The position numbers and the translations under genes are program-made. Below are positions 411 through 12,251 of a DNA stretch of 29,450 nucleotides, in pieces. The stretch is from Burkholderiales bacterium. Its GTDB lineage: Bacteria > Pseudomonadota > Gammaproteobacteria > Burkholderiales > SG8-39. Where the stretch lies: positions 1 to 29,450 of the forward strand of contig DASTHP010000188.1 in assembly GCA_035718125.1 (NCBI GenBank), read 5' to 3'. The notes below the pieces were generated by a model. That model did not search any database, had not been told where the DNA came from, and was given only the letters and a program-made list of their open reading frames with translations. How positions within the stretch are numbered: position 1 is the first letter of the stretch; the number at the start of each line of letters is the position of its first letter.

Positions 411-1166
411 TCAGCGGGCGTAGCCGGGATCCTCGCGGTCGAGGATGCGCTTCAACGCCGCGAAATGCGCGCCGGCGTATTTCGGCGTGTCGGCGAGGAT
501 CATGCGGTAGGTCTCGCGCACCACTTCCGGCCGCACCTTGCGGAACGGCAGCCCGGTGGCGCGCGCGAGCACCTGCAGCCGGCAGGCGCGCTCGAGGTAG
601 TAGAGCAGGTCGTAGGCCTCGGCCACCGTGGGGCCGACGGCGATCACGCCGTGGTTGGCGAGGAACAGCACGCGCTTTGAGCCGAGGACGCGCGCCAGGC
701 GGTCGCCCTCGGCGTCGTCCACCACCAGGCCGTTGTAGGTGTCGTCGTAGGCGATGTCGTCGGCGAAGCGCAGCGCGTTCTGCTCCACCATCTCCAGGCG
801 CCCCGGCTCGGTGAGCGTGAGCGCGGTCGCGTAGGGCATATGGGTGTGCAGCACGCAGGCCGCCTGCGGATTGGCGAGGTGGATGCGCGAATGGATGTAG
901 AACGCCGTCTTCTCCGCCTCGCCCTCGCCTTCAAGGATGCGGCCCTCGGCGTCGAGCGCCAGCAGGTTCGACGCGCTCACCTCGCTCCAGTGCAGGCCGT
1001 AGGGATTGAGGAGGAAGCGCTTGCCGTCGGGCAGCATCAGCGTGAAGTGGTTGCACACGCCTTCGTGCAGGTCCATGCGCACCGCGAGGCGGAACGCCGC
1101 TGCGAGATCGACGCGCGCCTGCCGGTCGGCGGCGGACAGGACTTCGGGCTTCTCCAGTTTTCCCAC
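411..1166 (-). CDS. Class II aldolase/adducin family protein
   Basis: Motifs CNHFT, IHSRIH, VLHTH and LANHG (metal-binding His). The start is placed at GTG 1166 because TATAAT lies 7 nt upstream; in-frame ATG 1190 is the alternative. The ORF-track start at 1388 is over-extended. Confidence 0.9.
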   Translation of the reverse strand: MGKLEKPEVLSAADRQARVDLAAAFRLAVRMDLHEGVCNHFTLMLPDGKRFLLNPYGLHWSEVSASNLLALDAEGRILEGEGEAEKTAFYIHSRIHLANPQAACVLHTHMPYATALTLTEPGRLEMVEQNALRFADDIAYDDTYNGLVVDDAEGDRLARVLGSKRVLFLANHGVIAVGPTVAEAYDLLYYLERACRLQVLARATGLPFRKVRPEVVRETYRMILADTPKYAGAHFAALKRILDREDPGYAR

Positions 1167-1173
1167 GGCGGCG

Positions 1174-1202
1174 ATTATAGGCGCATCCATTTGCGGGCCC
1201 AA
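1174..1202 (-). promoter_or_regulatory. Sigma70-type promoter (TTGGGC-N17-TATAAT) for the aldolase-GNAT operon, probably leaderless
   Basis: Minus strand: TTGGGC (1202-1197), 17-nt spacer, perfect TATAAT (1179-1174), then 7 nt to in-frame GTG 1166. No Shine-Dalgarno seen. Confidence 0.7.
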
Positions 1203-1272
1203 AGCGCAGCCCATCGCGCCCCGGCCCGGCCCGCGGGCGCCGTCCCGGGCCTGCATCGGGCCGTGACGGGTT

Positions 1273-1315
1273 GGTGCGATAGCGTACCGACCGGTTTCGG
1301 GCAACGACACAAGCT
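1273..1315 (+). promoter_or_regulatory. CRP-geometry dyad (GGTGC-GATAGC-GTACC) plus -10-like CAAGCT; promoter of the transglycosylase gene
   Basis: Dyad 1273-1288, 21-nt gap, CAAGCT 1310-1315, ATG 6 nt later. The same architecture recurs at 2034, 5203 and 7512. Confidence 0.65.
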
Positions 1316-1321
1316 GTTTGC

Positions 1322-2014
1322 ATGAGGATCGTGCTGCGCATTGCGACCAGGGAACTGCAGCGGCTGTTCTGCTTGGCGCGCGGCGCACTGGCCCTGTTCG
1401 GGCTTGCCGCAGTCCTCGCCGTCGCGCTGCCCCTGCCGGAGGAGACGCTGGAGGTGCAGGCAGCGGTCGCCACCCTGGTCAGGGGAGGGTCGGCGGTCGC
1501 CCCGTCGGCCAGTGGAACCATCATCGCCGCTGCGCCCAAGCCGGATCTGTCGGCACAGGAGCGCGAGGAGCGCGCCGTGGCGGACTACATCGCGAAACGC
1601 TACCGCGTGGCGGACTCGGCCAGCACCGCCTTCGTGTCGAACGCTTATCGCTCGGGCATGGAGCACTCCCTCGACCCGCTGCTGATCCTGGCGGTCATGG
1701 CGATCGAGTCGCGCTACAACCCGGTGGCCGAGAGCTCGATGGGCGCCATGGGACTGATGCAGATCATCCCCAAGTGGCACCAGGACAAGCTGCTGGAACA
1801 CGGCGGCGAGTACGCCCTGCTCGATCCCGAGGTCAACATCCAGGTCGGCGCACAGATCCTGCGCGAGTACCTGGGGCGCGCCGGCGAGATGGAAGCCGCT
1901 CTGCAGATGTACAACGGTGCACTGGATGAGCCCACCGCGCGCTACGCGGGCAAGGTGCTGGCAGAGAAGGCGCGCCTGCAGCAGTTTCTCGCGGCAGCGC
2001 TCGGCGCGATCTGA
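1322..2014 (+). CDS. Lytic transglycosylase (SLT domain) with N-terminal membrane anchor
   Basis: SLT motifs AVMAIESRYNP (catalytic Glu), GAMGLMQI and ALQMYNG; hydrophobic N-terminal segment. Confidence 0.9.
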   Translation: MRIVLRIATRELQRLFCLARGALALFGLAAVLAVALPLPEETLEVQAAVATLVRGGSAVAPSASGTIIAAAPKPDLSAQEREERAVADYIAKRYRVADSASTAFVSNAYRSGMEHSLDPLLILAVMAIESRYNPVAESSMGAMGLMQIIPKWHQDKLLEHGGEYALLDPEVNIQVGAQILREYLGRAGEMEAALQMYNGALDEPTARYAGKVLAEKARLQQFLAAALGAI

Positions 2015-2033
2015 GCAGGCGGCGGCAGGCGTT

Positions 2034-2076
2034 GGTTCTGCAGCGTACAGACCCTGCGCGGGCGAGAGCGCAAGCT
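2034..2076 (+). promoter_or_regulatory. CRP-geometry dyad (GGTTC-TGCAGC-GTACA) plus -10-like CAAGCT; promoter of the serine hydrolase gene
   Basis: Dyad 2034-2049, 21-nt gap, CAAGCT 2071-2076, ATG 7 nt later with no SD. Confidence 0.65.
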
Positions 2077-2083
2077 CCGCCCC

Positions 2084-3199
2084 ATGCAGGCTCTGATTCC
2101 GTGCGTCAGGCTCTCCCTGGCAGCGCTGCTGGTCGGGCTGGCAGCCGGCTGCGGCGGCGGCGGATCCGACGCGAGCGCCGTACCGGCCGAGTCGTGTTCG
2201 ATCGCCCAGCTCGAGTCGCAGATGGATACGACGCTTGCCCAGGCCGTGTCGGAGGTGGATTTTTCCTACGCGGTGCAACGGCAGGATGGCCGCCAGTACA
2301 GCTTCAACCGCGGAAGCTCCACCCTGCAGACGTCCTATCAGTCCGCGTCCACCTCGAAGCTGGTTTCGGCGGTGATCATCCTGCGCCTCGTGGAACAGGG
2401 CTACCTGAGCCTCGACGCGCGGCCGCACGACCACATCGCGGGCTGGCCGATCGGCAGCGGTGACTCGCTGTTCCCAATGACCCTGGCGCAGCTGCTCAGC
2501 TTCACCTCCGGCCTGGGCGTCCAGCCGGAAGTCGAGCCGGCCTGCCTGAACGACCCGGATTCCAACCTGAACACCTGCGTCATCACCATCGCCAATACCT
2601 ACGCCGGCAACGGCATCATCCCGGGGTCCCAGTTCCTCTACGCCAGCACGCACATGCACGTTGCAGGCCTGATGGCGGTCGCAGCGCGCGGCGCGGCGAG
2701 CTGGCAGGAAGTGTTCGCGGAGTTCCAGTCGCAAACCGGACTGTTCCCGGCCTCGAGCTTCGATCTGCCGTCAGTGGCCAATCCGCGCATCGCCGGCGGC
2801 ATGCGCCTCACCGGCGCGGACTACATGGCGTTCCTCAAGGCGCTCAGGGACGGCCTGCTCCTGAACGCCGCCTCAATGAGCCAGTTGCTGACCGACCACA
2901 CGGCGTCCGCCACCACCATCTACTCGCCGATGCTCTCGGGCATCGGGGGCGGCGCGGGCCTCGGCGAGGATTGGCATTACGGCTTCGGCCTGTGGCACGA
3001 ATGCCAGAGCGCAACGTTCAACTGCGTGCCGGGAACCAGGGTGTCGAGCCCCGGTGCCCTGGGCTCCTACCCGTTCTGGGACCGCAGCAAGGGCTACACG
3101 GGAATCGTCGTGCGCGAGGGTGTGTTCGGTACGCTGGTCAGCGGAATCGCGATCGAGCGATCGGTTCGCTCCAGCATGGAGTCCTGGGCGGCTTGCTGA
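2084..3199 (+). CDS. Serine hydrolase (beta-lactamase-related family) lipoprotein
   Basis: Lipobox LAAG-C, SxxK motif (STSK), LAQLLSFTSGL, FLYAS (Y-x-S), IAGGM and YGFGLW, all typical of the class C beta-lactamase-related/esterase fold. Confidence 0.85.
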   Translation: MQALIPCVRLSLAALLVGLAAGCGGGGSDASAVPAESCSIAQLESQMDTTLAQAVSEVDFSYAVQRQDGRQYSFNRGSSTLQTSYQSASTSKLVSAVIILRLVEQGYLSLDARPHDHIAGWPIGSGDSLFPMTLAQLLSFTSGLGVQPEVEPACLNDPDSNLNTCVITIANTYAGNGIIPGSQFLYASTHMHVAGLMAVAARGAASWQEVFAEFQSQTGLFPASSFDLPSVANPRIAGGMRLTGADYMAFLKALRDGLLLNAASMSQLLTDHTASATTIYSPMLSGIGGGAGLGEDWHYGFGLWHECQSATFNCVPGTRVSSPGALGSYPFWDRSKGYTGIVVREGVFGTLVSGIAIERSVRSSMESWAAC

Positions 3200-3304
3200 G
3201 GCGCATGCGCCTCGCGCGCGGCCAGGAAGGCCCGGGCCGGGGTGCCGTCTCCTGCTGCCGGACGGCGTAAAGCTCCCCGGACGGGCTGCGCTACGGACTG
3301 CGGG

Positions 3305-3568
3305 TCAGGACTTGCCGAACCGCGTGTTCGCCTCGGTCATGCAGCTGGCCTTGGCGTCGCCCGCGAAAGCATCGCACTTCTCCTTCGCCACCTTGTAGTC
3401 GGCATCGCGCTTCTGCGCGGCGGCTTCCTTGCTCGCGTCGGCCGGTGTTTCCTTCGTCATCGTCTTCGAGTCGGCCGGGGCCTGCTTCGGCTGCACCTGC
3501 GCCATCGAGCCGGCGCTGAACGCAAGGCCGATCGCCAGGGCGATCGCACTGATGCTGAGATTTTTCAT
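3305..3568 (-). CDS. Small secreted hypothetical protein (87 aa) with a C-terminal two-Cys helical motif
   Basis: SD AAGGAAAG before ATG 3568; signal peptide MKNLSISAIALAIGLAFSAGSMA; C-terminus DADYKVAKEKCDAFAGDAKASCMTEANTRFGK. Confidence 0.8.
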   Translation of the reverse strand: MKNLSISAIALAIGLAFSAGSMAQVQPKQAPADSKTMTKETPADASKEAAAQKRDADYKVAKEKCDAFAGDAKASCMTEANTRFGKS

Positions 3569-3681
3569 CGACTTTCCTTTAGTTGTAATGGTGGTTGTGG
3601 GTGTGCTGCTGGTGCATGCGGCAGCGATGCCTTGCCGGGGCCGGGCTGCGCCCTGGCGCGCCATCGCGGCGCGCGGTCCAT

Positions 3682-3882
3682 CTACTTTTGCCGGTCCTGC
3701 CAGGCGTCGAGCTGCTTATCCGCCTCGTCCTTCGAGACGCCATACGATTCCTGGATCTTGCCGGAGAGCTGCTCGCGCTTGCCGGCGATCACGTCGAGCT
3801 GATCGTCGGTGAGCTTGCCCCACTGCTGCTTGACGTTGCCCTTGAACTGCTTCCAGTTGCCTTCAATGCGATCCCAGTTCAT
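3682..3882 (-). CDS. csbD: CsbD family general stress protein (66 aa)
   Basis: MNWDRIEGNWKQFKGNVKQQWGKLTDDQLDVIAGKREQLSGKIQESYG is a typical CsbD/YjbJ sequence; SD GAGGA. Confidence 0.95.
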   Translation of the reverse strand: MNWDRIEGNWKQFKGNVKQQWGKLTDDQLDVIAGKREQLSGKIQESYGVSKDEADKQLDAWQDRQK

Positions 3883-3984
3883 TGCGGGTTCCTCATGTTG
3901 GATTGACTCGAAACCGGCCCGGGCAGGCACCGGCAGTGCGATACGGCGGCAGCGTCCGTGTCCGGCGTGCCCTTCGCATCGGCC

Positions 3985-4027
3985 ATGCTCGCCCGGGCGC
4001 GCCCTGCGGTCTGTGTGCTGGCGCGCA
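3985..4027 (-). promoter_or_regulatory. Degenerate CRP-geometry dyad (TGCGC-GCCAGC-ACACA) plus -10-like GAGCAT pointing at csbD
   Basis: Minus-strand dyad 4027-4012, 21-nt gap, GAGCAT 3990-3985. The spacing matches the four strong copies but there are more mismatches. Confidence 0.4.
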
Positions 4028-4040
4028 TGGCAGAACGAAC

Positions 4041-4049
4041 TGGTACGCT
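4041..4049 (+). promoter_or_regulatory. Extended -10 element (TGgTACGCT) of the kinase gene, leaderless architecture
   Basis: TG-n-TACGCT at 4041-4049, then 7 nt, then ATG 4057. No SD. Confidence 0.55.
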
Positions 4050-4056
4050 AGCCCGC

Positions 4057-5172
4057 ATGAGCGACTGGCAGGGCGAGATTCTCGTGGTGGACGACGACGC
4101 GGGGAATCTGCTTGCCCTGGAAGCGTTGCTGGAACCATTGGGGCAGGTCGTGCTGCGCGCGCGCTCGGGCGCGGCGGCGCTGCGCCTGCTGCTCGATCAC
4201 GACCCCGCGGTGATCGTGCTCGACGTGCGCATGCCGCGCATGGACGGCTTCGAAACCGCGCAGCGGATCCGCGCCCGCGCGCGCTCGCGGCACATCCCGA
4301 TCATCTTCCTCACCGGCGTGTCCACGGAGACGGCAGCGGCGTTTCGCGGCTACGAAGTCGGCGCGGTGGATTACCTGATGAAGCCCGCGGTGCCGGAGGT
4401 GCTGCGCTCCAAGGTGTCCGTGTTCGTCGAGCTGCAGCGCAAGAACGCGGCGCTCGCCCGCGAGATCGGCGAGCGGCGGCTCGCCGAGCAGCGGCTGCGG
4501 GAGTCGCAGGCGCAGCTGCGCGCGCTCGCGGCGCGCCTGATCTCCATCCGCGAGGAGGAGCGCGCGCGCATCGCGCGCGAGATCCACGATGAGCTGGGGC
4601 AGGTCCTGACCGGCCTGAAGATGGACGTCGCCTGGCTGCGCAAGCGCCTCGGCAGGGACCAGGCGCCGCTGCTCGACAAGACCGAGACCATGCGCCGCCT
4701 GATCGATGCCACGATGCAGGTGGTGCGCAGGATCGCCACCGGCATGCGGCCGGAGATTCTCGACGACCTGGGCCTGGTGGCGGCGATCGGCTGGCAGGCG
4801 AAGGAATTCCAGAAGCGCATGGGCATCCGTTGCCGGGTCGAGCTGCCGGCGTCGCGCCGCGATCTGGGCAGCGAGCTGTCGACGGCGGTGTTCCGCATCT
4901 TCCAGGAGATCCTCACCAACATCGCGCGCCACGCCAGGGCCAGCAGCGTCGGCGTGCGGCTGCACATCTCGGCGAAGCGCCTCACGCTGGAAGTCGTCGA
5001 CGACGGCAGCGGCATTGCCGAGGCCGCGGTGCACGCGCGCGAATCCCTCGGGCTGCTGGGCATGCAGGAACGGGCGCAGCAGCTCGGCGGCGAGGTCAGC
5101 ATCCTTGGCCGGCGCGGCCGCGGCACCAGCGTGGCGCTTTCCATTCCGCTGCCGGTTGCGCCGCCGCACTAG
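4057..5172 (+). CDS. Cytoplasmic hybrid histidine kinase: REC - coiled coil - HisKA_3 - HATPase
   Basis: Intact REC (ILVVDDD...IVLDVRMP...FLTG...YLMKP); H-box REEERARIAREIHDELGQ; N/G boxes FQEILTNIARHA, VVDDGSG and GLLGMQERA. No TM or sensor domain. Confidence 0.92.
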   Translation: MSDWQGEILVVDDDAGNLLALEALLEPLGQVVLRARSGAAALRLLLDHDPAVIVLDVRMPRMDGFETAQRIRARARSRHIPIIFLTGVSTETAAAFRGYEVGAVDYLMKPAVPEVLRSKVSVFVELQRKNAALAREIGERRLAEQRLRESQAQLRALAARLISIREEERARIAREIHDELGQVLTGLKMDVAWLRKRLGRDQAPLLDKTETMRRLIDATMQVVRRIATGMRPEILDDLGLVAAIGWQAKEFQKRMGIRCRVELPASRRDLGSELSTAVFRIFQEILTNIARHARASSVGVRLHISAKRLTLEVVDDGSGIAEAAVHARESLGLLGMQERAQQLGGEVSILGRRGRGTSVALSIPLPVAPPH

Positions 5173-5202
5173 GCAGGCGTTTCACCCGCGCCTGCCGCGC
5201 AC

Positions 5203-5245
5203 TGTTCGACAGCGTACAGATGGGCCGCGGCCTACAGTGCACTCT
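5203..5245 (+). promoter_or_regulatory. CRP-geometry dyad (TGTTC-GACAGC-GTACA) plus -10-like CACTCT; promoter of the PhoB-like gene
   Basis: Dyad 5203-5218, 21-nt gap, CACTCT 5240-5245; SD AAGGGG before ATG 5270. Confidence 0.62.
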
Positions 5246-5269
5246 GCAGCCTACTAAGGGGTAAGAGAC

Positions 5270-5962
5270 ATGGCGGGCTCGGTATTGGTGGTGGAGAACG
5301 AGGAACCGGTGAGGCAGCTGCTTGCCGGCAATCTGCAGAGCGCGGGTTACCAGGTGCATTGCGCGGGCGATGTCGCCCAGGCCGAAACGATGATGCGTAC
5401 GGTCCGCCCGGACCTGGTGGTGCTCAACTGGATCCTGCCGGGAATTCCCGGGTTGCCGTTCGCCCGGCACCTGCGCGGCGACCGGCGCACCAAGGACATC
5501 TCGATCGTGCTGATCAGCGACCGCGCAGCCGAACAGGACAAGGTCGCCGCGCTGGAGGGCGGGGCGGACGACTACGTCACCAAGCCGTATTCCTGCAGGG
5601 AGCTGCTGGCGCGCATCAAGGCGGTGATGCGCCGGCGCGCGCCCCAGCTCGCCGACAGCGTGATCGAGAGCGGCGGGCTGCAGCTGGATCCGGCGGCGCG
5701 GCGCGTCAGCGCCGGCAATCGCGAGATCGAGCTGTGGACCACCGAGTTCCGGCTGCTGCATTTCTTCATGACGCATCCGGGGCGCATCTTCAGCCGCGCC
5801 ACGCTGCTCGACGAGGTCTGGGGCCACGACGCCTGCGTCGAGGAGCGCACCGTCGACGTCCACATCCGCCGCCTGCGCCAGGGGCTGGCGCCCGCCGGCT
5901 GCGACGTGCCGATCGAGACTGTGCGCGGCCTCGGCTACCGCTTCCGGGCCGAGCCCTGCTGA
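5270..5962 (+). CDS. PhoB-like OmpR-family regulator with a degenerate (pseudo-)receiver domain
   Basis: The winged-helix domain is close to PhoB (TEFRLLHFFMTHP, RTVDVHIRRLR, TVRGLGYRF). The receiver has VVENE and DLVVLNWILPG, i.e. Asn in place of the conserved Asp residues. Confidence 0.9.
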   Translation: MAGSVLVVENEEPVRQLLAGNLQSAGYQVHCAGDVAQAETMMRTVRPDLVVLNWILPGIPGLPFARHLRGDRRTKDISIVLISDRAAEQDKVAALEGGADDYVTKPYSCRELLARIKAVMRRRAPQLADSVIESGGLQLDPAARRVSAGNREIELWTTEFRLLHFFMTHPGRIFSRATLLDEVWGHDACVEERTVDVHIRRLRQGLAPAGCDVPIETVRGLGYRFRAEPC

Positions 5963-7366
5963 TCAGTAGGCGTTCTGCTTTCGCAGCACCACGACCACGG
6001 TCATGAGCACGATCTTGAGGTCGAGCAGCGGCGACCAGTTGCGCAGGTAGGCCAGGTCGTACTCGACGCGCGCGCGCATCTTCTCGAGCGTATCCGTCTC
6101 GCCGCGCAGCCCGTTGACCTGCGCCAGGCCGGTGATGCCGGGCCGCACCTTGTGCCGCACCATGTAGCTGGGGATCAGCTTGCGGTACATCTCGTTGTGG
6201 GCGACGGCGTGCGGCCTGGGTCCGACCACGCTCATGCGGCCCTGCAGGACATTGACGAACTGCGGCAGCTCGTCGAGCGAGTACTTGCGCAGCACGGCGC
6301 CCAGCGGCGTCACGCGCGGGTCGCCGCGCGTGGCCTGCGTCACCACGCCGCCGTCCTCCAGCGCGGACATGGAGCGGAACTTGTAGACGAAGATCTCCCT
6401 GCCGTCCAGCCCGTAGCGGCGCTGCTTGAACAGCACCGGCCCGGGCGAACTGTGCTTCACCGCGAGCGCGATGGCCAGCATCAGCGGCGCGATCAGGACC
6501 AGGATCGCCGAGGCGAGGACGATGTCGATCGCGCGCTTGAGCAGCCCGTCCATCCCGTAGAAGGGCGACTCGCACACCGCGAGCACCGGCAAGCCGCCGA
6601 TGGTCTGCACGCGCGCCTGGATCAGGTCGCACAGGAAGATGTCCGGCGCGAAGTAGATGGAGGCCGTGGTGTCGTGCAGCGCCTCCAGCAGCGCAAGGAT
6701 GCGCGGCTGCGCGGTCATGGGCAGGGTGATGTAGATCATGTCGATGTGCTGCGCACGCACGTATTCCGCCAGCTGCCCGAGGTTGCCGAGGTTGCGCCGC
6801 GCGCCCGCATCGCCGTCCCGCGGCGTGGCGCGGTCATCGAAGTAGCCGGCAAAGCGGATGCCGGTCAATGGACGATCGCGCAGATGCGCGCCCAGATCGC
6901 GGCCCAGCCCGTTCGCGCCGACGATGACCGCGGTTCTCTGCAGGCCTTCGGCAGCCAGCAGTCTGGGCAGCAGCACGGGCACCAGCCGGTGGGCGGCGAA
7001 CAGGGCGAGCGGCGTCGCGACCACCCAGGCGAGGATGGCGCGGGCATCGAAGTTCGCCAGCGTTCCCGAGGCCCAGCCGAGCAGGAGCAGCAGCGCGACC
7101 ATCGCCAGCCATTCGCTGGCGATGCCCAGGGCCAGCTCGAGGGCTTTCTCCGTATCGCGCGCGAGATTGCCCGGGAAGGTTATCGAGAACACGAGCAGCG
7201 CAAGGATCAGATGGGACCCGCCGAAGCGCCCGTCGAACCACAGGGCGCAGGCCACCAGCGAGACGACCGCCACTGCCGGGTCGACCGCGGCCCGCAGCAA
7301 TGCCGCCGGACTGGGCTGACTCGGCAGCAAGCGCGGATGCGTGTGTGGGTACGGGAGCAAGGTCAT
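5963..7366 (-). CDS. wcaJ: Undecaprenyl-phosphate glucose phosphotransferase (WcaJ/EpsB-type priming transferase)
   Basis: Four N-terminal TM segments, IVGAN linker domain, and a Bac_transf domain (KRAIDIV, FKQRRYG, YKFRSM, DPRVT, SLDELPQFVNVLQGRMSVVGPRPH, VRPGITGLAQVNG). Confidence 0.93.
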   Translation of the reverse strand: MTLLPYPHTHPRLLPSQPSPAALLRAAVDPAVAVVSLVACALWFDGRFGGSHLILALLVFSITFPGNLARDTEKALELALGIASEWLAMVALLLLLGWASGTLANFDARAILAWVVATPLALFAAHRLVPVLLPRLLAAEGLQRTAVIVGANGLGRDLGAHLRDRPLTGIRFAGYFDDRATPRDGDAGARRNLGNLGQLAEYVRAQHIDMIYITLPMTAQPRILALLEALHDTTASIYFAPDIFLCDLIQARVQTIGGLPVLAVCESPFYGMDGLLKRAIDIVLASAILVLIAPLMLAIALAVKHSSPGPVLFKQRRYGLDGREIFVYKFRSMSALEDGGVVTQATRGDPRVTPLGAVLRKYSLDELPQFVNVLQGRMSVVGPRPHAVAHNEMYRKLIPSYMVRHKVRPGITGLAQVNGLRGETDTLEKMRARVEYDLAYLRNWSPLLDLKIVLMTVVVVLRKQNAY

Positions 7367-7452
7367 GAATGCAGTGCGCGAGCGCTGGATTGCCGGAGCC
7401 CAGACTAGCGCAGGCCGGGCACGGCGATGACGCGGGCTCGTGCACCTGGCGA

Positions 7453-7468
7453 TAGCTCCATCGGACTA
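7453..7468. promoter_or_regulatory. Putative EPS-locus operator (TAGCTC-CATC-GGACTA) in the divergent wcaJ/epsA region
   Basis: Imperfect copy of the TAGTCC-N4-GGACYA dyad seen at 8986, 16374 and 22540. Confidence 0.4.
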
Positions 7469-7511
7469 GCGCCGCGACGCGCCATGCCGCCTCGCGGGCC
7501 GACGGCCTTTT

Positions 7512-7554
7512 GGTGCGACAGCGTACATACCGCCGCCGGCGCACAGGCTACGCT
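7512..7554 (+). promoter_or_regulatory. CRP-geometry dyad (GGTGC-GACAGC-GTACA) plus -10 TACGCT; promoter of epsA
   Basis: Dyad 7512-7527, 21-nt gap, TACGCT 7549-7554, which puts the dyad centre at about -41.5. SD AGGA before GTG 7616. Confidence 0.68.
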
Positions 7555-7615
7555 GCGTTCCAGGGTGTCAGGCCGCTTGTTGGTTTCGTGACTGCCTACC
7601 ATTGACAGGATCGCC

Positions 7616-8494
7616 GTGCTACTCAGCCAAGCGCAGACGCCGCATCGCCAGAAGCTCCTGCCGCCCGCATTCGCGGATGGGGTCGTGGACTACGCGAGCC
7701 CCGCCGGGGAGACCATCGCCGCCAACGGCAATCCGCAAGCGCTGAGCGACCTCGACGTCGAAATCCTGATGCTCAATCTGGACGCCTCCCTCAGGGTGTA
7801 CGAGCGCGAGCATTTCTTCAGCTGGACACAGGGCGTGCTGCAGAGCCTGATCAAGCATGAAGTCCTGGTCTGCGCCTTGCACAGCGGCGAACCGCCGACG
7901 CTGCGCGCCGACAGCTTCTCGATGGTTGCGGCGGAGCAGGCGCACTTCGGCGAGCTGTTCGTGCGCGACGCGTCGGTCGCGCTGGGCCTGATCAAGAGCT
8001 GGGAAGACCGCGGGTTCCGGCCGCTGATCTGCGATGCCACCGACGCGCCGTTCTCGCGCGGCCTGTTCGCGCAGGAACTCGGGCGCGTGAGCGCCACGCA
8101 GATCCTGGCGCACGGCACGCACGACGCGCAGGGACGCACGCGCGGCTTCTACGCGTTCGTCTGCGCTCCGGGAACGCTCGGCCCGCGGCACGCCTACCTG
8201 GCGCGCCTGGTGACGCCTTCCCTGCACGCCGCCTGGGTGCGCACCGAGGTCAACGGCCGCGCCAAGGGCAACGACCCGGTGCCACGCGAGCAAGCCGGAA
8301 GGATCACCACGCGCGAGGAAGAGATCCTGCGCTGGGTCGCGCTCGGCAAGAGCAACTTCGAGATCGGCGCCATCCTCGGCATCAGCCCTCTGACCGTGAA
8401 GAACCATGTGCAGAAGATTCTGCGCAAGCTGAATGTCGTCAACCGCGCCCAGGCCGTCGGCAAGGCCTCGGAACTGCGCATGCTCAGGAACTGA
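7616..8494 (+). CDS. epsA: LuxR-family transcriptional regulator, EpsA type
   Basis: C-terminal LuxR HTH (TTREEEILRWVALGKSNFEIGAILGISPLTVKNHVQKILRKLNVVNRAQAV); N-terminal REHFFSWTQGVLQSLIKHE region without REC; position next to the priming transferase and epsEFG. Confidence 0.85.
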   Translation: MLLSQAQTPHRQKLLPPAFADGVVDYASPAGETIAANGNPQALSDLDVEILMLNLDASLRVYEREHFFSWTQGVLQSLIKHEVLVCALHSGEPPTLRADSFSMVAAEQAHFGELFVRDASVALGLIKSWEDRGFRPLICDATDAPFSRGLFAQELGRVSATQILAHGTHDAQGRTRGFYAFVCAPGTLGPRHAYLARLVTPSLHAAWVRTEVNGRAKGNDPVPREQAGRITTREEEILRWVALGKSNFEIGAILGISPLTVKNHVQKILRKLNVVNRAQAVGKASELRMLRN

Positions 8495-9059: not shown

Positions 9060-9908
9060 ATGCAGAACATGCCGAAAGTCCGCTTCACGCCACTCCACGC
9101 AGCGCGCCAGCTGCTGTGGATCCTGTTTGCCGCGCTGCTCACCGCGACGCCGGCGCTTTCCCAGACGCGCGATCCCGCCCGCTCGAACGAAGCGCTCGGC
9201 GCGGGCGACGGCGTGCGCGTCACGGTGTTCCAGAATCCGGACCTGACGACCGACGCCCGCATCTCCCCCAGGGGCACCATCGTGTTCCCGCTGGTCGGCG
9301 AGATCGAGCTGGGTGGATTGACGCCGGCGCAGGCGGGCAACCGCATCGCCGAGCAGCTGCGCCGTGGCGGCTTCATGGTCAGGCCGCAGGTCGCCGTCTC
9401 CATCCTCCAAGTGCGCAGCAGGCAGGTGCACGTGCTCGGGCAGCTGCAGCGTCCCGGCAGCTACGTGCTGGAGGACACGGGCGCACGCCTCACCGACATC
9501 CTGACGCTGGCGGGCGGCATCAATGCCACCGGCGCCGACACGGTGACGGTGCTGACGCACCGCGAGGGCAAGGCGCAAACCTGGGCCATCAACCTGCCGG
9601 CGATCTTCCGCGGCGGCAGCGGCGCGAACAACATCCAGATCGAGAACGGCGACACCATCTTCGTCGAGCGTGCGCCGGTGTTCTACATCTACGGCGAGGT
9701 GCAGCGCGCCGGCGCCTATCGGCTGGAGCCGAACATGGTCGTGATGCAGGCGCTCGCCCTTGGCGGCGGGCTCACGCAGCGCGCCACCGAACGCGGCATC
9801 GGCATTCACCGGCGCTTGCCCGACGGCAAGTTCACGAAACACGAGGCGAGGCTCACGGATCCGGTTCAGGCGGAGGACATCGTCTTCGTCCGCGAGAGCC
9901 TGTTCTAG
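9060..9908 (+). CDS. epsE: Polysaccharide export (OPX) protein, EpsE type
   Basis: Poly_export motif LGAGDGVRVTVFQNPDL...GTIVFPLVGEIELGGLT plus two SLBB domains; ends DIVFVRESLF; SPI-type signal; SD GAGG. The ORF-track start at 8433 is over-extended. Confidence 0.9.
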   Translation: MQNMPKVRFTPLHAARQLLWILFAALLTATPALSQTRDPARSNEALGAGDGVRVTVFQNPDLTTDARISPRGTIVFPLVGEIELGGLTPAQAGNRIAEQLRRGGFMVRPQVAVSILQVRSRQVHVLGQLQRPGSYVLEDTGARLTDILTLAGGINATGADTVTVLTHREGKAQTWAINLPAIFRGGSGANNIQIENGDTIFVERAPVFYIYGEVQRAGAYRLEPNMVVMQALALGGGLTQRATERGIGIHRRLPDGKFTKHEARLTDPVQAEDIVFVRESLF

Positions 9909-9920
9909 CCGGCGCCCATC

Positions 9921-11351
9921 GTGAACCTGCAGCAGTTCCTGCGCGCGCTGCGCGCACGCTTCGGAGTGTTCATGCTGGTCCTGGGCGCCACCATGCTCGC
10001 CGCCGCGGTCGCGAGCCTGATGCTGGCCAAGACCTACAAGGCGACGGTGACGCTGCTGATGGACGCCCGCAACGAGCAATCGCTGAGCGGCGCGCAGCGC
10101 CCGCTCATCCTCCCCCTGGAGAGGCTGGCTTTCCTCGAGACGCAGAAGGACATCCTCACCAGCAAGAAGGTGGCGCGCAAGGTGGTGCAGGACCTGAAGC
10201 TGGCCGAGGAGCCGGCGGTGCGCATGATCCTGGGAGACGAGCCGGCCGGCGCGGCGCCGATCGAGGATCGCGCGGTCGACGCGGTGCTGAAGAAGCTGAA
10301 GGTCGAGACCTCGCAGAGCAACGTCATCCGGGTGAGCTACGCGTCGCCCGATGCGGCGGCCGCGGCGCAGATTGCCAATGCCTTCGCCGGCGCCTATATC
10401 GACACGCTGCTGCAGCTGCACGTGGAGCCGGCCCGCGAAGCGACGGCGTGGTTCGAGGAGCAGCTCAAGCGCCTGCGCGCCAGCCTCGAGGAGGCGCAGG
10501 CGCGGCTCACCGAGAACTACCAGCAGCGCGAGATCGTCGCGGCCGACGAGCGCCTGGATGTCGAGAACAGCCGGCTGCAGGCGCTGTCGGACGAAACGGT
10601 CAGGGCGCAGGAGCGCAGCTTCCAGTGGGACAGCCGCGAGCAGCAGGCGCGCAACGCGGTGCGCCGGGGCGCGTCGCCCGAGCGGCTGCCGGACGTGCTC
10701 GACAACTCGTTCATCCAGCGGCTCAAGGGCGACCTGCTGCTCGGCGAGGCGCGGCTGAAGCAGCTGGCGACCCAGTACGGGCAGAATCACCCGCATTACC
10801 AGCGGCAGGTGTCCGAGAACCAGAGCCTGCGCGAGAAGCTCGACGCCGAGATGGCGAAAGTGGTGGCCAGCGTCGGCAGCTCGGCGCGCCAGAGCCGCGA
10901 CCGCGAGGCGGCGCTGGCGCAGGCGACGGAGGCGCAGAGGAAGCGCATGCTCGGCCTCAAGCAGGGCCGCAACGAGCTCACGGTGCTCAGGCGCAACGTG
11001 GAATCGGCGGAACGCGCCTACGACACTGCCTTGCAGCGCTCGGTCGCGAGCCAGGTGGACAGCCGCGTCAACCAGACCAGCGTCACGGTGCTCAGCCCTG
11101 CCGTCGTGCCGGGCAGGCCCGCCAGCCCGCGCATGGACCTGAACCTTGCCTTGGCCGCCGCGGTCGGCGTCATGCTCGGCATCGGCATCGTCCTGCTGCT
11201 GGAGATGACGGACCGGCGCGTGCGTTCGCAGGACGACCTCGAGAACGCCTGGGATGTGCCGTTGCTCGGTGAGCTCAAGCCCTGGAAGCCCGCCCGCCGG
11301 CTCCTCGGCCAGTCGACGAAGGAACCCCGTGCATTGCCCAATCCAGGCTGA
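9921..11351 (+). CDS. epsF: Chain-length determinant / polysaccharide co-polymerase, EpsF type
   Basis: Two TM segments flanking a long periplasmic coiled coil; VLSPAVVP...SPR motif before TM2; no fused kinase. Confidence 0.9.
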   Translation: MNLQQFLRALRARFGVFMLVLGATMLAAAVASLMLAKTYKATVTLLMDARNEQSLSGAQRPLILPLERLAFLETQKDILTSKKVARKVVQDLKLAEEPAVRMILGDEPAGAAPIEDRAVDAVLKKLKVETSQSNVIRVSYASPDAAAAAQIANAFAGAYIDTLLQLHVEPAREATAWFEEQLKRLRASLEEAQARLTENYQQREIVAADERLDVENSRLQALSDETVRAQERSFQWDSREQQARNAVRRGASPERLPDVLDNSFIQRLKGDLLLGEARLKQLATQYGQNHPHYQRQVSENQSLREKLDAEMAKVVASVGSSARQSRDREAALAQATEAQRKRMLGLKQGRNELTVLRRNVESAERAYDTALQRSVASQVDSRVNQTSVTVLSPAVVPGRPASPRMDLNLALAAAVGVMLGIGIVLLLEMTDRRVRSQDDLENAWDVPLLGELKPWKPARRLLGQSTKEPRALPNPG

Positions 11352-11360
11352 AGGCGACCG

Positions 11361-12251
11361 ATGAGCAACTCCGACAACGTCCTGCCCATCGAGGGCTTCG
11401 GCCGCCTGGTGGCGCGCCAGGACGGCAGGCTCGGCAACATCCTGCTCGCGGACGGCAAGATCAGCGCACGCGACATCGAGCCGATACTCGAGATCCAGCG
11501 TGCCCGCGGCATCCGCTTCGGCGAGGCGGCGCTGCGCCTGCGGCTCATCACCCGGGACGATCTGCGCGACGCCATTGCCAGGCAGTACGGGCTGCTGCAC
11601 CTGCTGCCGGGCAGCGGCAGCATCAGCCGCGAGCTGGTCGCCGCCTACGAGCCGTTTCATCCGCGCGCCGAGGAATTGCGCGCCCTGCGCACGCAGCTGC
11701 TGATCCGCTGGGCCAACGCCAGGGTGCGGCACCGCATGCTGGCCATCGTCAGCCCGGGCGCCGGCGAAGGGCGCAGCTATGTCGCCGCCAATCTCGCCGT
11801 CGTGTTCTCCCAGCTCGGCCAGCGCACGATCCTGATCGACGCCGACCTGCGCAACCCGCGGCAGCACCGCATCTTCGACGTTCCCGACCGCGTCGGCCTG
11901 TCGTCGGTCCTTTCGGGCCGCGCCGACCGCAGCGCGGTGGTGCCGCTGCCCCAGTTCGGCACGCTGTCGCTGCTGCCGGCGGGCGCCTGTCCGCCCAACC
12001 CGCAGGAACTGCTGCTGCGGCCGGTGCTGACCACGCTGCTGGACGAGCTGCGCGAGGAGTTCGACGTCGTGCTGTTCGACACGCCGCCGGCCAGCCTTTA
12101 CGCCGACGCGCAGAGCCTGGCGTTCCGCGCCGGCAGCGCCATCGTGCTGGCGCGCAAGGACCACACCGGCATCGCCGCGACCGCCAGCACCATCCGCGTG
12201 CTGAGCGATACCGGTACCAGCGTGGTCGGCACGGTGTTCAACTCCATCTGA
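11361..12251 (+). CDS. epsG: BY-kinase-like protein, EpsG type, with N-terminal MshEN-type motif
   Basis: Walker A variant SPGAGEGRS, Walker A' ILIDADLRNP, Walker B VVLFDTPP. Residues 23-75 hold two 24-aa RLG/RFG...Q motifs. Confidence 0.9.
   Translation: MSNSDNVLPIEGFGRLVARQDGRLGNILLADGKISARDIEPILEIQRARGIRFGEAALRLRLITRDDLRDAIARQYGLLHLLPGSGSISRELVAAYEPFHPRAEELRALRTQLLIRWANARVRHRMLAIVSPGAGEGRSYVAANLAVVFSQLGQRTILIDADLRNPRQHRIFDVPDRVGLSSVLSGRADRSAVVPLPQFGTLSLLPAGACPPNPQELLLRPVLTTLLDELREEFDVVLFDTPPASLYADAQSLAFRAGSAIVLARKDHTGIAATASTIRVLSDTGTSVVGTVFNSI

Follow-up and report, generated by a model that had tools for sequence, protein, structure and literature searches.

The window analyzed here is a stretch of 29,450 nucleotides (contig DASTHP010000188.1 of assembly GCA_035718125.1) from a Burkholderiales bacterium of the SG8-39 lineage. 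The assembly (G000) is a metagenome-assembled genome (MAG) of 2.59 Mb in 361 contigs with 69% G+C, which is 78.5% complete. The window codes for an SLT transglycosylase, a beta-lactamase-fold protein, CsbD, a REC-HisKA_3 kinase, an OmpR/PhoB-type regulator, a WcaJ-type priming transferase and EpsA, followed by EpsE, EpsF and EpsG. Four 16-bp dyads (boxes 1 to 4) occur on the + strand at 1273, 2034, 5203 and 7512, with 10 of the 16 positions being invariant, just as an earlier note on this DNA had reported. All four are intergenic, and each is located 5' of a + strand gene. From sequence comparisons, it is very likely that these dyads are operators of an uncharacterized Crp/Fnr-type subfamily which acts at class II promoters. 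The relevant features are listed below. The scores are those of a symmetric position weight matrix (PWM), trained solely on 50 foreign autoregulatory sites, none of which is from the window; ranks refer to the G000 genome. G019, G017 and G003 are genomes from the same genus that were used for synteny comparison.

1273..1288, + strand: box 1, GGTGCG-ATAG-CGTACC, 5' of the SLT gene; PWM 16.0 bits, rank 6; kept syntenically in G017.
1310..1315, + strand: -10-like hexamer CAAGCT, 21 nt after box 1.
1322..2014, + strand: gene for a lytic transglycosylase (SLT domain; Pfam PF01464, E-value 1e-17).
2034..2049, + strand: box 2, GGTTCT-GCAG-CGTACA, 5' of the gene for the beta-lactamase-fold lipoprotein; PWM 16.3 bits, rank 5; kept in G019.
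2071..2076, + strand: -10-like hexamer CAAGCT, 21 nt after box 2.
2084..3199, + strand: gene for the beta-lactamase-fold protein (serine hydrolase; Pfam PF00144, E-value 2e-18).
3305..3882, - strand: csbD (3682-3882; Pfam CsbD, E-value 5e-21) and the gene for an 87-aa secreted protein (3305-3568), a possible target operon.
4012..4027, - strand: weak box TGCGCG-CCAG-CACACA, 21 nt from GAGCAT (3990-3985), towards csbD; PWM 11.2 bits, rank 28.
4057..5172, + strand: gene for a REC-HisKA_3-HATPase hybrid kinase (Pfam), listed for context, without a box of its own.
5203..5218, + strand: box 3, TGTTCG-ACAG-CGTACA, 5' of the PhoB-like gene; PWM 23.4 bits, rank 2.
5240..5245, + strand: -10-like hexamer CACTCT, 21 nt after box 3; identical in G019 and G017.
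5270..5962, + strand: gene for an OmpR/PhoB-type regulator (TIGR02154, 295.7 bits with a cut-off of 296.2).
7512..7527, + strand: box 4, GGTGCG-ACAG-CGTACA, 5' of epsA; PWM 20.9 bits, rank 3.
7549..7554, + strand: -10-like hexamer TACGCT, 21 nt after box 4.
7616..8494, + strand: epsA, encoding a LuxR-type, XrtB/PEP-CTERM-associated regulator, at the head of the exopolysaccharide (EPS) locus (TIGR03020, 191.5 bits with a cut-off of 170).

The strict pattern, which is degenerate so as to cover the four dyads of the window, is KGTKCNNNAGCGTACM. It matches the window four times while 0.18 matches are expected, and none of 100 shuffles reached four. There is no further match elsewhere in the G000 assembly. 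At exactly 21 nt 3' of boxes 1 to 4, hexamers of the type YAnnnT are found (CAAGCT, CAAGCT, CACTCT and TACGCT, respectively), a spacing that the earlier note had also described. When the opposite orientation of each of the four dyads was searched for a YAnnnT hexamer at 21 nt, none was found. Thus, the four boxes point at the downstream + strand gene.

Because the training sites of the PWM are all foreign, recovery of the window boxes by this matrix is a window-independent test. The genome scan, which had been suggested as a check, retrieved them at ranks 2, 3, 5 and 6 (23.4, 20.9, 16.3 and 16.0 bits). Ranks 1 and 4 are intergenic boxes on other contigs of G000. One is followed by N21-TACAAT and precedes a gene for an outer membrane protein (OMP) beta-barrel; after the other come N21-CAGCAT and a gene for a 59-aa lipoprotein. 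The full consensus, as obtained from sites in distant genomes, is T-N-TGTNCG-NTAN-CGNACA-N-A, a palindrome of about 20 bp that is flanked by T at -2 and by A at +2. In the window boxes, the promoter-proximal arm has the consensus sequence (CGTACA), and the distal arm is weaker.

The boxes are retained in related genomes. Box 3 is present in G019, G017, G003 and two further species, and in the syntenic locus of the three same-genus genomes the box 5' of the PhoB-like gene is kept in all. The epsA box is detected with the strict pattern in G019 and G003 and by PWM scan in G017. The SLT or hydrolase box is, where present, retained in the same-genus genomes. The strict pattern was found in the relatives, and a reversed control pattern was not. 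However, the same-genus genomes are 80-97% identical across the region, so that conservation at this level is weakly informative. This leaves room for an alternative explanation, namely that the block is part of a promoter for an alternative sigma factor (an extended -35-like element) or reflects chance similarity among close relatives; the fixed distance between the motif and the -10-like element would fit a sigma factor. Against this stands the shuffle test, which rules out chance, and the palindrome recurs at unrelated genes, not only in distant families but also in another order-level group. In addition, the 3' end of the motif is 21 nt from the -10, which is over long for a -35/-10 spacer, and on reading the sequence the spacings of sigma-54 and extracytoplasmic function (ECF) promoters are not found. 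We consider this explanation extremely unlikely.

The geometry of the window promoters is shared by the foreign sites. TAnnnT starts 21 nt after the dyad, in the direction of the regulator gene, in 18 of the 50 foreign sites. Of the other offsets between 10 and 34, none has it in more than 2 of the 50, and in the opposite direction it occurs at offset 21 in 3. This peak agrees with the class II geometry with a center at -41.5 that had been proposed for the window. Between the dyad center and the base at which the -10 begins there are 29 bp, which puts the center at -41.5 if the hexamer spans -12 to -7. According to a review (PMC10187061), only class II promoters have 22 bp between the CAP site and the second -10 base. 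A scan of window positions 1100-7700 for a sigma-70-like -35/-10 pair found none, and the hexamers at the -35 position of the window promoters match TTGACA at 2-3 of 6 positions. All four sites in the window thus have the layout of class II promoters, an activator site near -41.5 that overlaps the missing -35 element. From this geometry, we infer that the window promoters are weak and activator-dependent.

Some Crp/Fnr proteins repress from sites that overlap the -35 region. As the box overlaps this position, the same Crp/Fnr-type protein might bind the boxes and act as a repressor by occluding the -35 region. However, the promoters have no usable -35 and their -10s are weak, so there would be little to repress. 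The rigid phasing of 21 nt across dozens of unrelated promoters fits contact with RNA polymerase, while occlusion needs no such phasing, and the promoter of the regulator's own gene has the box in the same geometry. Repression is improbable for these reasons, and class II activation is the preferred reading.

Other known promoter and operator types were compared with the motif. A sigma-54 promoter would have a GG/GC spacing of 12, whereas it is 9 here. For an ECF promoter, the 21-nt gap exceeds the possible -35/-10 spacer. A LexA box has an N8 spacer, whereas the window motif is TGT-N10-ACA. These three candidates, and with them a direct repeat of the Pho-box type, were abandoned when the motif proved to be a 20-bp palindrome. 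An Rfam search of the window gave no match.

The box is associated with one Crp/Fnr subfamily. In G039, a genome from a different family of the same order that is 100% complete, three boxes lie within about 2 kb. One is directly 5' of a Crp/Fnr-type gene, which is the sole copy of the subfamily in this genome. Of the other two, one precedes the gene for a His-rich 80-aa protein, and one faces csbD with N21-TAGTCT. Homologs of the G039 regulator adjoin the motif at eight loci in six genomes (including one duplicate pair). A regulator search (alignment A1, one genome per species) yielded at least 600 pattern-matching stretches. Among the best 80 of these loci, 77 have at least 260 bp of upstream sequence, and in 44 of these 77 foreign loci the 260 bp that precede the regulator gene contain TGTNC-N6-GNACA. 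The positions of the 72 sites in those loci cluster, with half of them (36 of 72) in a single 100-bp bin.

The motif and the gene also co-occur phyletically. When 16 other families of the order were compared, exactly the 8 with the regulator gene also had the perfect palindrome; two or three of those 8 have a single palindrome match, which is not above the control. Within the genus, the gene is present in 10 of the 11 motif-bearing genomes. When 120 families of the class were sampled, the gene was found in 10 genomes, and all three genomes with at least two perfect sites are among these. In the multi-site genomes of the class, many perfect sites adjoin regulator genes. From the own-gene boxes and the phyletic co-occurrence, we infer that the subfamily binds the box. 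The earlier note had postulated a protein of the Crp/Fnr family whose specificity is altered and whose gene is not in the window, but could not name it; it had suggested looking for the motif upstream of a crp/fnr-family gene. The motif is indeed found there, and the window has no homolog of the regulator. The factor can now be placed, at the family level, in a Crp/Fnr subfamily.

Two details of the G039 locus (L031) should be mentioned. The gene for the 80-aa protein (11124-11366, - strand), which is rich in His, Ala and Lys, is directly behind its box and has no Pfam match. In the region 9232-9408, one box is flanked on either side, at 21 nt, by a -10-like hexamer. Its + direction leads to csbD; the - direction has no convincing open reading frame and is convergent with the neighboring gene. 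It may give rise to a small or antisense RNA.

Another explanation is that the dyad is bound by a regulator encoded in the window itself, either EpsA or the PhoB-like protein, which would control its own gene as well as the neighboring ones. GTNC-N6-GTAC can also be read as a 10-bp direct repeat; since GTAC is self-complementary, such a reading is formally possible. Boxes 3 and 4 precede the PhoB-like gene and epsA, and the strict motif is confined to the window locus within the assembly. However, many genomes have the box beside a Crp-like gene with no EpsA or full-length PhoB-like homolog within 3 kb, and the PWM from those foreign sites recovers the window boxes. The consensus is clearly palindromic out to 20 bp, EpsA homologs with less than 65% identity are devoid of the box, and two more strong boxes are present on other contigs of G000. 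A locally encoded binder is very unlikely, and the Crp/Fnr-type subfamily remains the favored candidate.

The orthologs of the regulator from G019 and G039 match PF13545 (HTH_Crp_2; E-value 1.3e-13, 51 bits with a cut-off of 27). The Pfam domain cNMP_binding scores 20.4 bits, which is under the cut-off of 27.5. The AlphaFold2 model (predicted local distance difference test score, pLDDT, 89.4; predicted template modeling score, pTM, 0.85) has a beta-barrel and a long dimerization helix (residues 126-151), so that the N-terminal barrel and dimerization helix typical of the Crp/Fnr superfamily are predicted. Against Mycobacterium tuberculosis (Mtb) CRP, GlxR, FNR and NtcA, the model has template modeling (TM) scores of 0.75-0.81 over 200-225 residues at no more than 22% sequence identity. 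An alignment of 45 sequences (A2, including paralogs with 40% identity) has 33 invariant columns. C148, H152, C225 and C227 (numbering of the G019 protein) are invariant in all 45. C148 and H152 form a pair in the hinge after the dimer helix, and C225 and C227 belong to a CECY motif after the helix-turn-helix (HTH). R100 is nearly invariant and has a position like R82 of CRP; the cNMP domain is below the Pfam threshold, and reviewed CRPs have at most 21% identity.

The NCBIfam scan returned NtcA (TIGR03697) as the sole curated hit. With 39.7 bits and a cut-off of 245, the regulator is therefore not NtcA. NCBIfam has no model for the regulator, and neither PDB nor Swiss-Prot has an entry with more than 22% identity to it. 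Literature searches did not find a paper on the box or the subfamily, which is no proof that none exists. The subfamily is widespread in Beta- and Gammaproteobacteria, with up to 15 paralogs per genome and 12-15 in close relatives of G000.

Several observations weigh against the assignment of the boxes to this subfamily. The promoter-distal half-sites in the window are degenerate (GGTGCG, GGTTCT). Single perfect matches occur in 13 of 110 gene-less genomes of the class sample (about 12%), which is the rate of the control pattern; this tally counts the unpublished genome G077 among the single-hit genomes, and G077 supports no claim. With so many paralogs per genome, more than one is a candidate for the acting protein. 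Furthermore, the G000 assembly has no intact copy of the GVRREGVT type, and only a paralog of the RRVGVT type and a remnant were found. These two copies of the regulator family are encoded on contig C278 (L121). The paralog (174-854, - strand; helix RRVGVT) is full-length but divergent, being 41% identical to the G039 protein. The other copy (2044-2427, + strand) is a C-terminal remnant of the syntenic GVRREGVT-type gene. In comparison to G019 (contig C5), about 860 bp are missing, which comprise the promoter, the box and the N-terminal half. In addition, the invariant Gly of the recognition helix is replaced by Arg, giving RRERVT. A PWM scan of contig C278 found no box of at least 8 bits. The truncation is either a real pseudogene or an artefact of MAG assembly. 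The cognate copy of the regulator is probably unassembled, because relatives hold 12-15 paralogs and about one-fifth of the genome is missing.

The earlier note had the transglycosylase, the serine hydrolase, csbD, the PhoB-like protein and epsA co-activated by the factor. Strong boxes precede all of these genes except csbD, which has a weak site, and activation would follow from the promoter geometry. In the SLT gene, the start codon (ATG, 1322) is 7 nt after the -10-like hexamer, and in the gene for the lipoprotein hydrolase (ATG, 2084) it is 8 nt after it. The same close arrangement of hexamer and ATG exists in G019 and G017. As there is no room for a Shine-Dalgarno sequence, we predict that the SLT mRNA is leaderless and that the hydrolase mRNA is leaderless or near-leaderless. 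On reading the sequence, the hydrolase has a lipoprotein signal peptide (LAAGC).

The weak minus-strand copy at 4027-4012, which had been described as followed by GAGCAT, is present and is the best PWM hit within its intergenic segment upstream of csbD. Its distance to GAGCAT is exactly 21 nt in three species (including G019 and G017). In the csbD promoter of G003, a 24-nt insertion puts a different box-like 16-mer at exactly 21 nt. At another locus (L063), csbD and a gene for a protein like the 87-aa secreted protein occur as a pair behind a strong box. From these data, csbD may or may not belong to the regulon, with about equal probability.

As a separate observation, the epsA and csbD promoters of G003 (L035, 956-995 and about 4430-4480) each have two box-like 16-mers that are exactly 24 nt apart. 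This would fit the duplication of a 24-nt unit at two separate promoters.

The gene for the PhoB-like regulator directly follows that of the REC-HisKA_3 kinase. Its product has 295.7 bits to the PhoB model (TIGR02154), below the cut-off of 296.2, and lacks the phospho-acceptor Asp, so that it was not assigned to PhoB. In the translation, an Asn (VLNWILPG) is aligned to Asp53 of PhoB, and VVENE is found in place of VVEDE of PhoB. With Asn replacing the phospho-acceptor Asp, the domain is a pseudo-receiver, and the regulator probably acts without phosphorylation.

The assignment of EpsA is based on its TIGR03020 score and on its position in a locus with EpsE, EpsF and EpsG. EpsE (309 bits, cut-off 263) and EpsG (342 bits, cut-off 314) pass, and EpsF (418.4 bits) is just under its cut-off of 422.75. 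EpsA may be a master regulator, as its family name suggests. All 12 EpsA orthologs with 68% identity or more have the epsA box with a TAnnnT-type hexamer at the right offset, whereas the 68 EpsA homologs that are more distant all lack it. Therefore, the EPS wiring is a conserved, lineage-specific addition. In the orthologous epsA promoters, the hexamers at the same offset are TACTCT, TATTCT, TAGTTT, TATTGT, TACTTT and TAGGCT.

The tyrosine kinase EpsG (11361-12251, + strand of the window) has an N-terminal MshE-related motif for binding of cyclic di-GMP (NF053729, residues 23-75, 41.2 bits with a cut-off of 38), which suggests an input of cyclic di-GMP into chain-length control.

The genes 3' of boxes in other genomes code for CsbD, DUF3096, an Fe/Mn superoxide dismutase, a GGDEF cyclase, a PAS hybrid kinase, an SDR (short-chain dehydrogenase/reductase) enzyme and paralogs of the regulator, which is a stress and signaling set. 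New here are the links of the box to epsA, to the PhoB-like regulator with a pseudo-receiver and to two genes for envelope enzymes that are probably leaderless.

Taken together, the following model is proposed. A dimer of a regulator characterized by the recognition helix GVRREGVT, the invariant Cys-His-Cys-Cys and a C-terminal CECY would bind TGTNCG-N4-CGNACA, centered 29 bp 5' of the base at which a weak -10 begins (about -41.5). Once bound, the dimer would substitute for the -35 element and, like CRP at class II promoters, recruit RNA polymerase. In the window, the regulon would comprise the genes for the lytic transglycosylase, the beta-lactamase-fold lipoprotein and the unphosphorylatable PhoB-like regulator as well as epsA. 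The strong boxes elsewhere in the genome would add the OMP beta-barrel and the small lipoprotein, with csbD as a possible weak member. The regulator would be encoded outside the window and would activate its own gene in other genomes. It is tempting to speculate further, and we consider this rather doubtful, that the subfamily is a redox- or metal-sensing, self-activating stress switch that operates via its Cys-His-Cys-Cys; that its box is undescribed; that this lineage has captured biofilm control (epsA and the unphosphorylatable PhoB-like regulator); and that the two envelope enzymes are made from leaderless mRNAs.

If the model holds, a regulator family and an operator can be assigned to promoters that otherwise look promoterless, and an uncultured soil Burkholderiales lineage would have a stress-type regulon that is coupled to exopolysaccharide control via EpsA in an XrtB/PEP-CTERM-type locus. 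With at least 600 pattern-matching stretches, the regulator family is very common; it is also multi-copy, and no characterized member was found in our searches. Thus, characterization of a single cultured carrier (Variovorax, Polaromonas) would annotate many genomes.

Several known systems resemble the proposed one. FNR senses via cysteines. FNR, FixK and Anr (TTGAT-N4-ATCAA) have the same fold (TM scores 0.74-0.76). In Betaproteobacteria, families of paralogs with positive autoregulation reportedly exist. However, the regulator is devoid of the N-terminal Cys cluster, its Cys and His residues being located at the hinge and after the HTH, and the box differs at every specific position. NtcA from cyanobacteria (GTA-N8-TAC, -41.5) replaces the -35 element at activator-dependent promoters. 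Of the solved structures, it gives one of the best sequence matches to the regulator, and the box fits GTN-N8-NAC. NtcA differs by having only 21-22% identity and different central bases, and no link to nitrogen genes was seen for the boxes.

Clr from Sinorhizobium meliloti (HGTYHC-N4-GRWACA) was absent among the sequence matches of the regulator to solved structures. Its site has, like the box, an unconserved fourth position and a four-base spacer that is flanked by conserved palindromic bases (PMC10187061). Its class II-type activation of a small regulon also resembles what is proposed here. The flank is, however, C5-G6/C11-G12 here and C6/G11 in Clr, and the recognition helix is RREGVT here and RPKVNR in Clr.

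A further parallel is class II activation by CRP from Escherichia coli (TGTGA-N6-TCACA, -41.5). Both sites are palindromes of 16-22 bp with a TGT...ACA frame that overlap the -35 region, and both have 22 bp from the site to the second -10 base (PMC10187061). The fold is the same (TM scores 0.63-0.77 to CAP chains), and both recognition helices have the Arg-Glu pair (RRE here, RE in CRP). The two proteins have, however, only 17-18% identity. In the half-site of the box, C5/G6 are fixed while any base may occupy position 4, whereas CRP fixes G4/A5; the helix is RREGVTE here and RETVGR in CRP. CRP also lacks the invariant Cys and His residues of the subfamily, which, unlike CRP, is multi-copy with up to 15 members per genome. 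The subfamily and its box appear to be undescribed, while the proposed mechanism is that of a textbook class II Crp.

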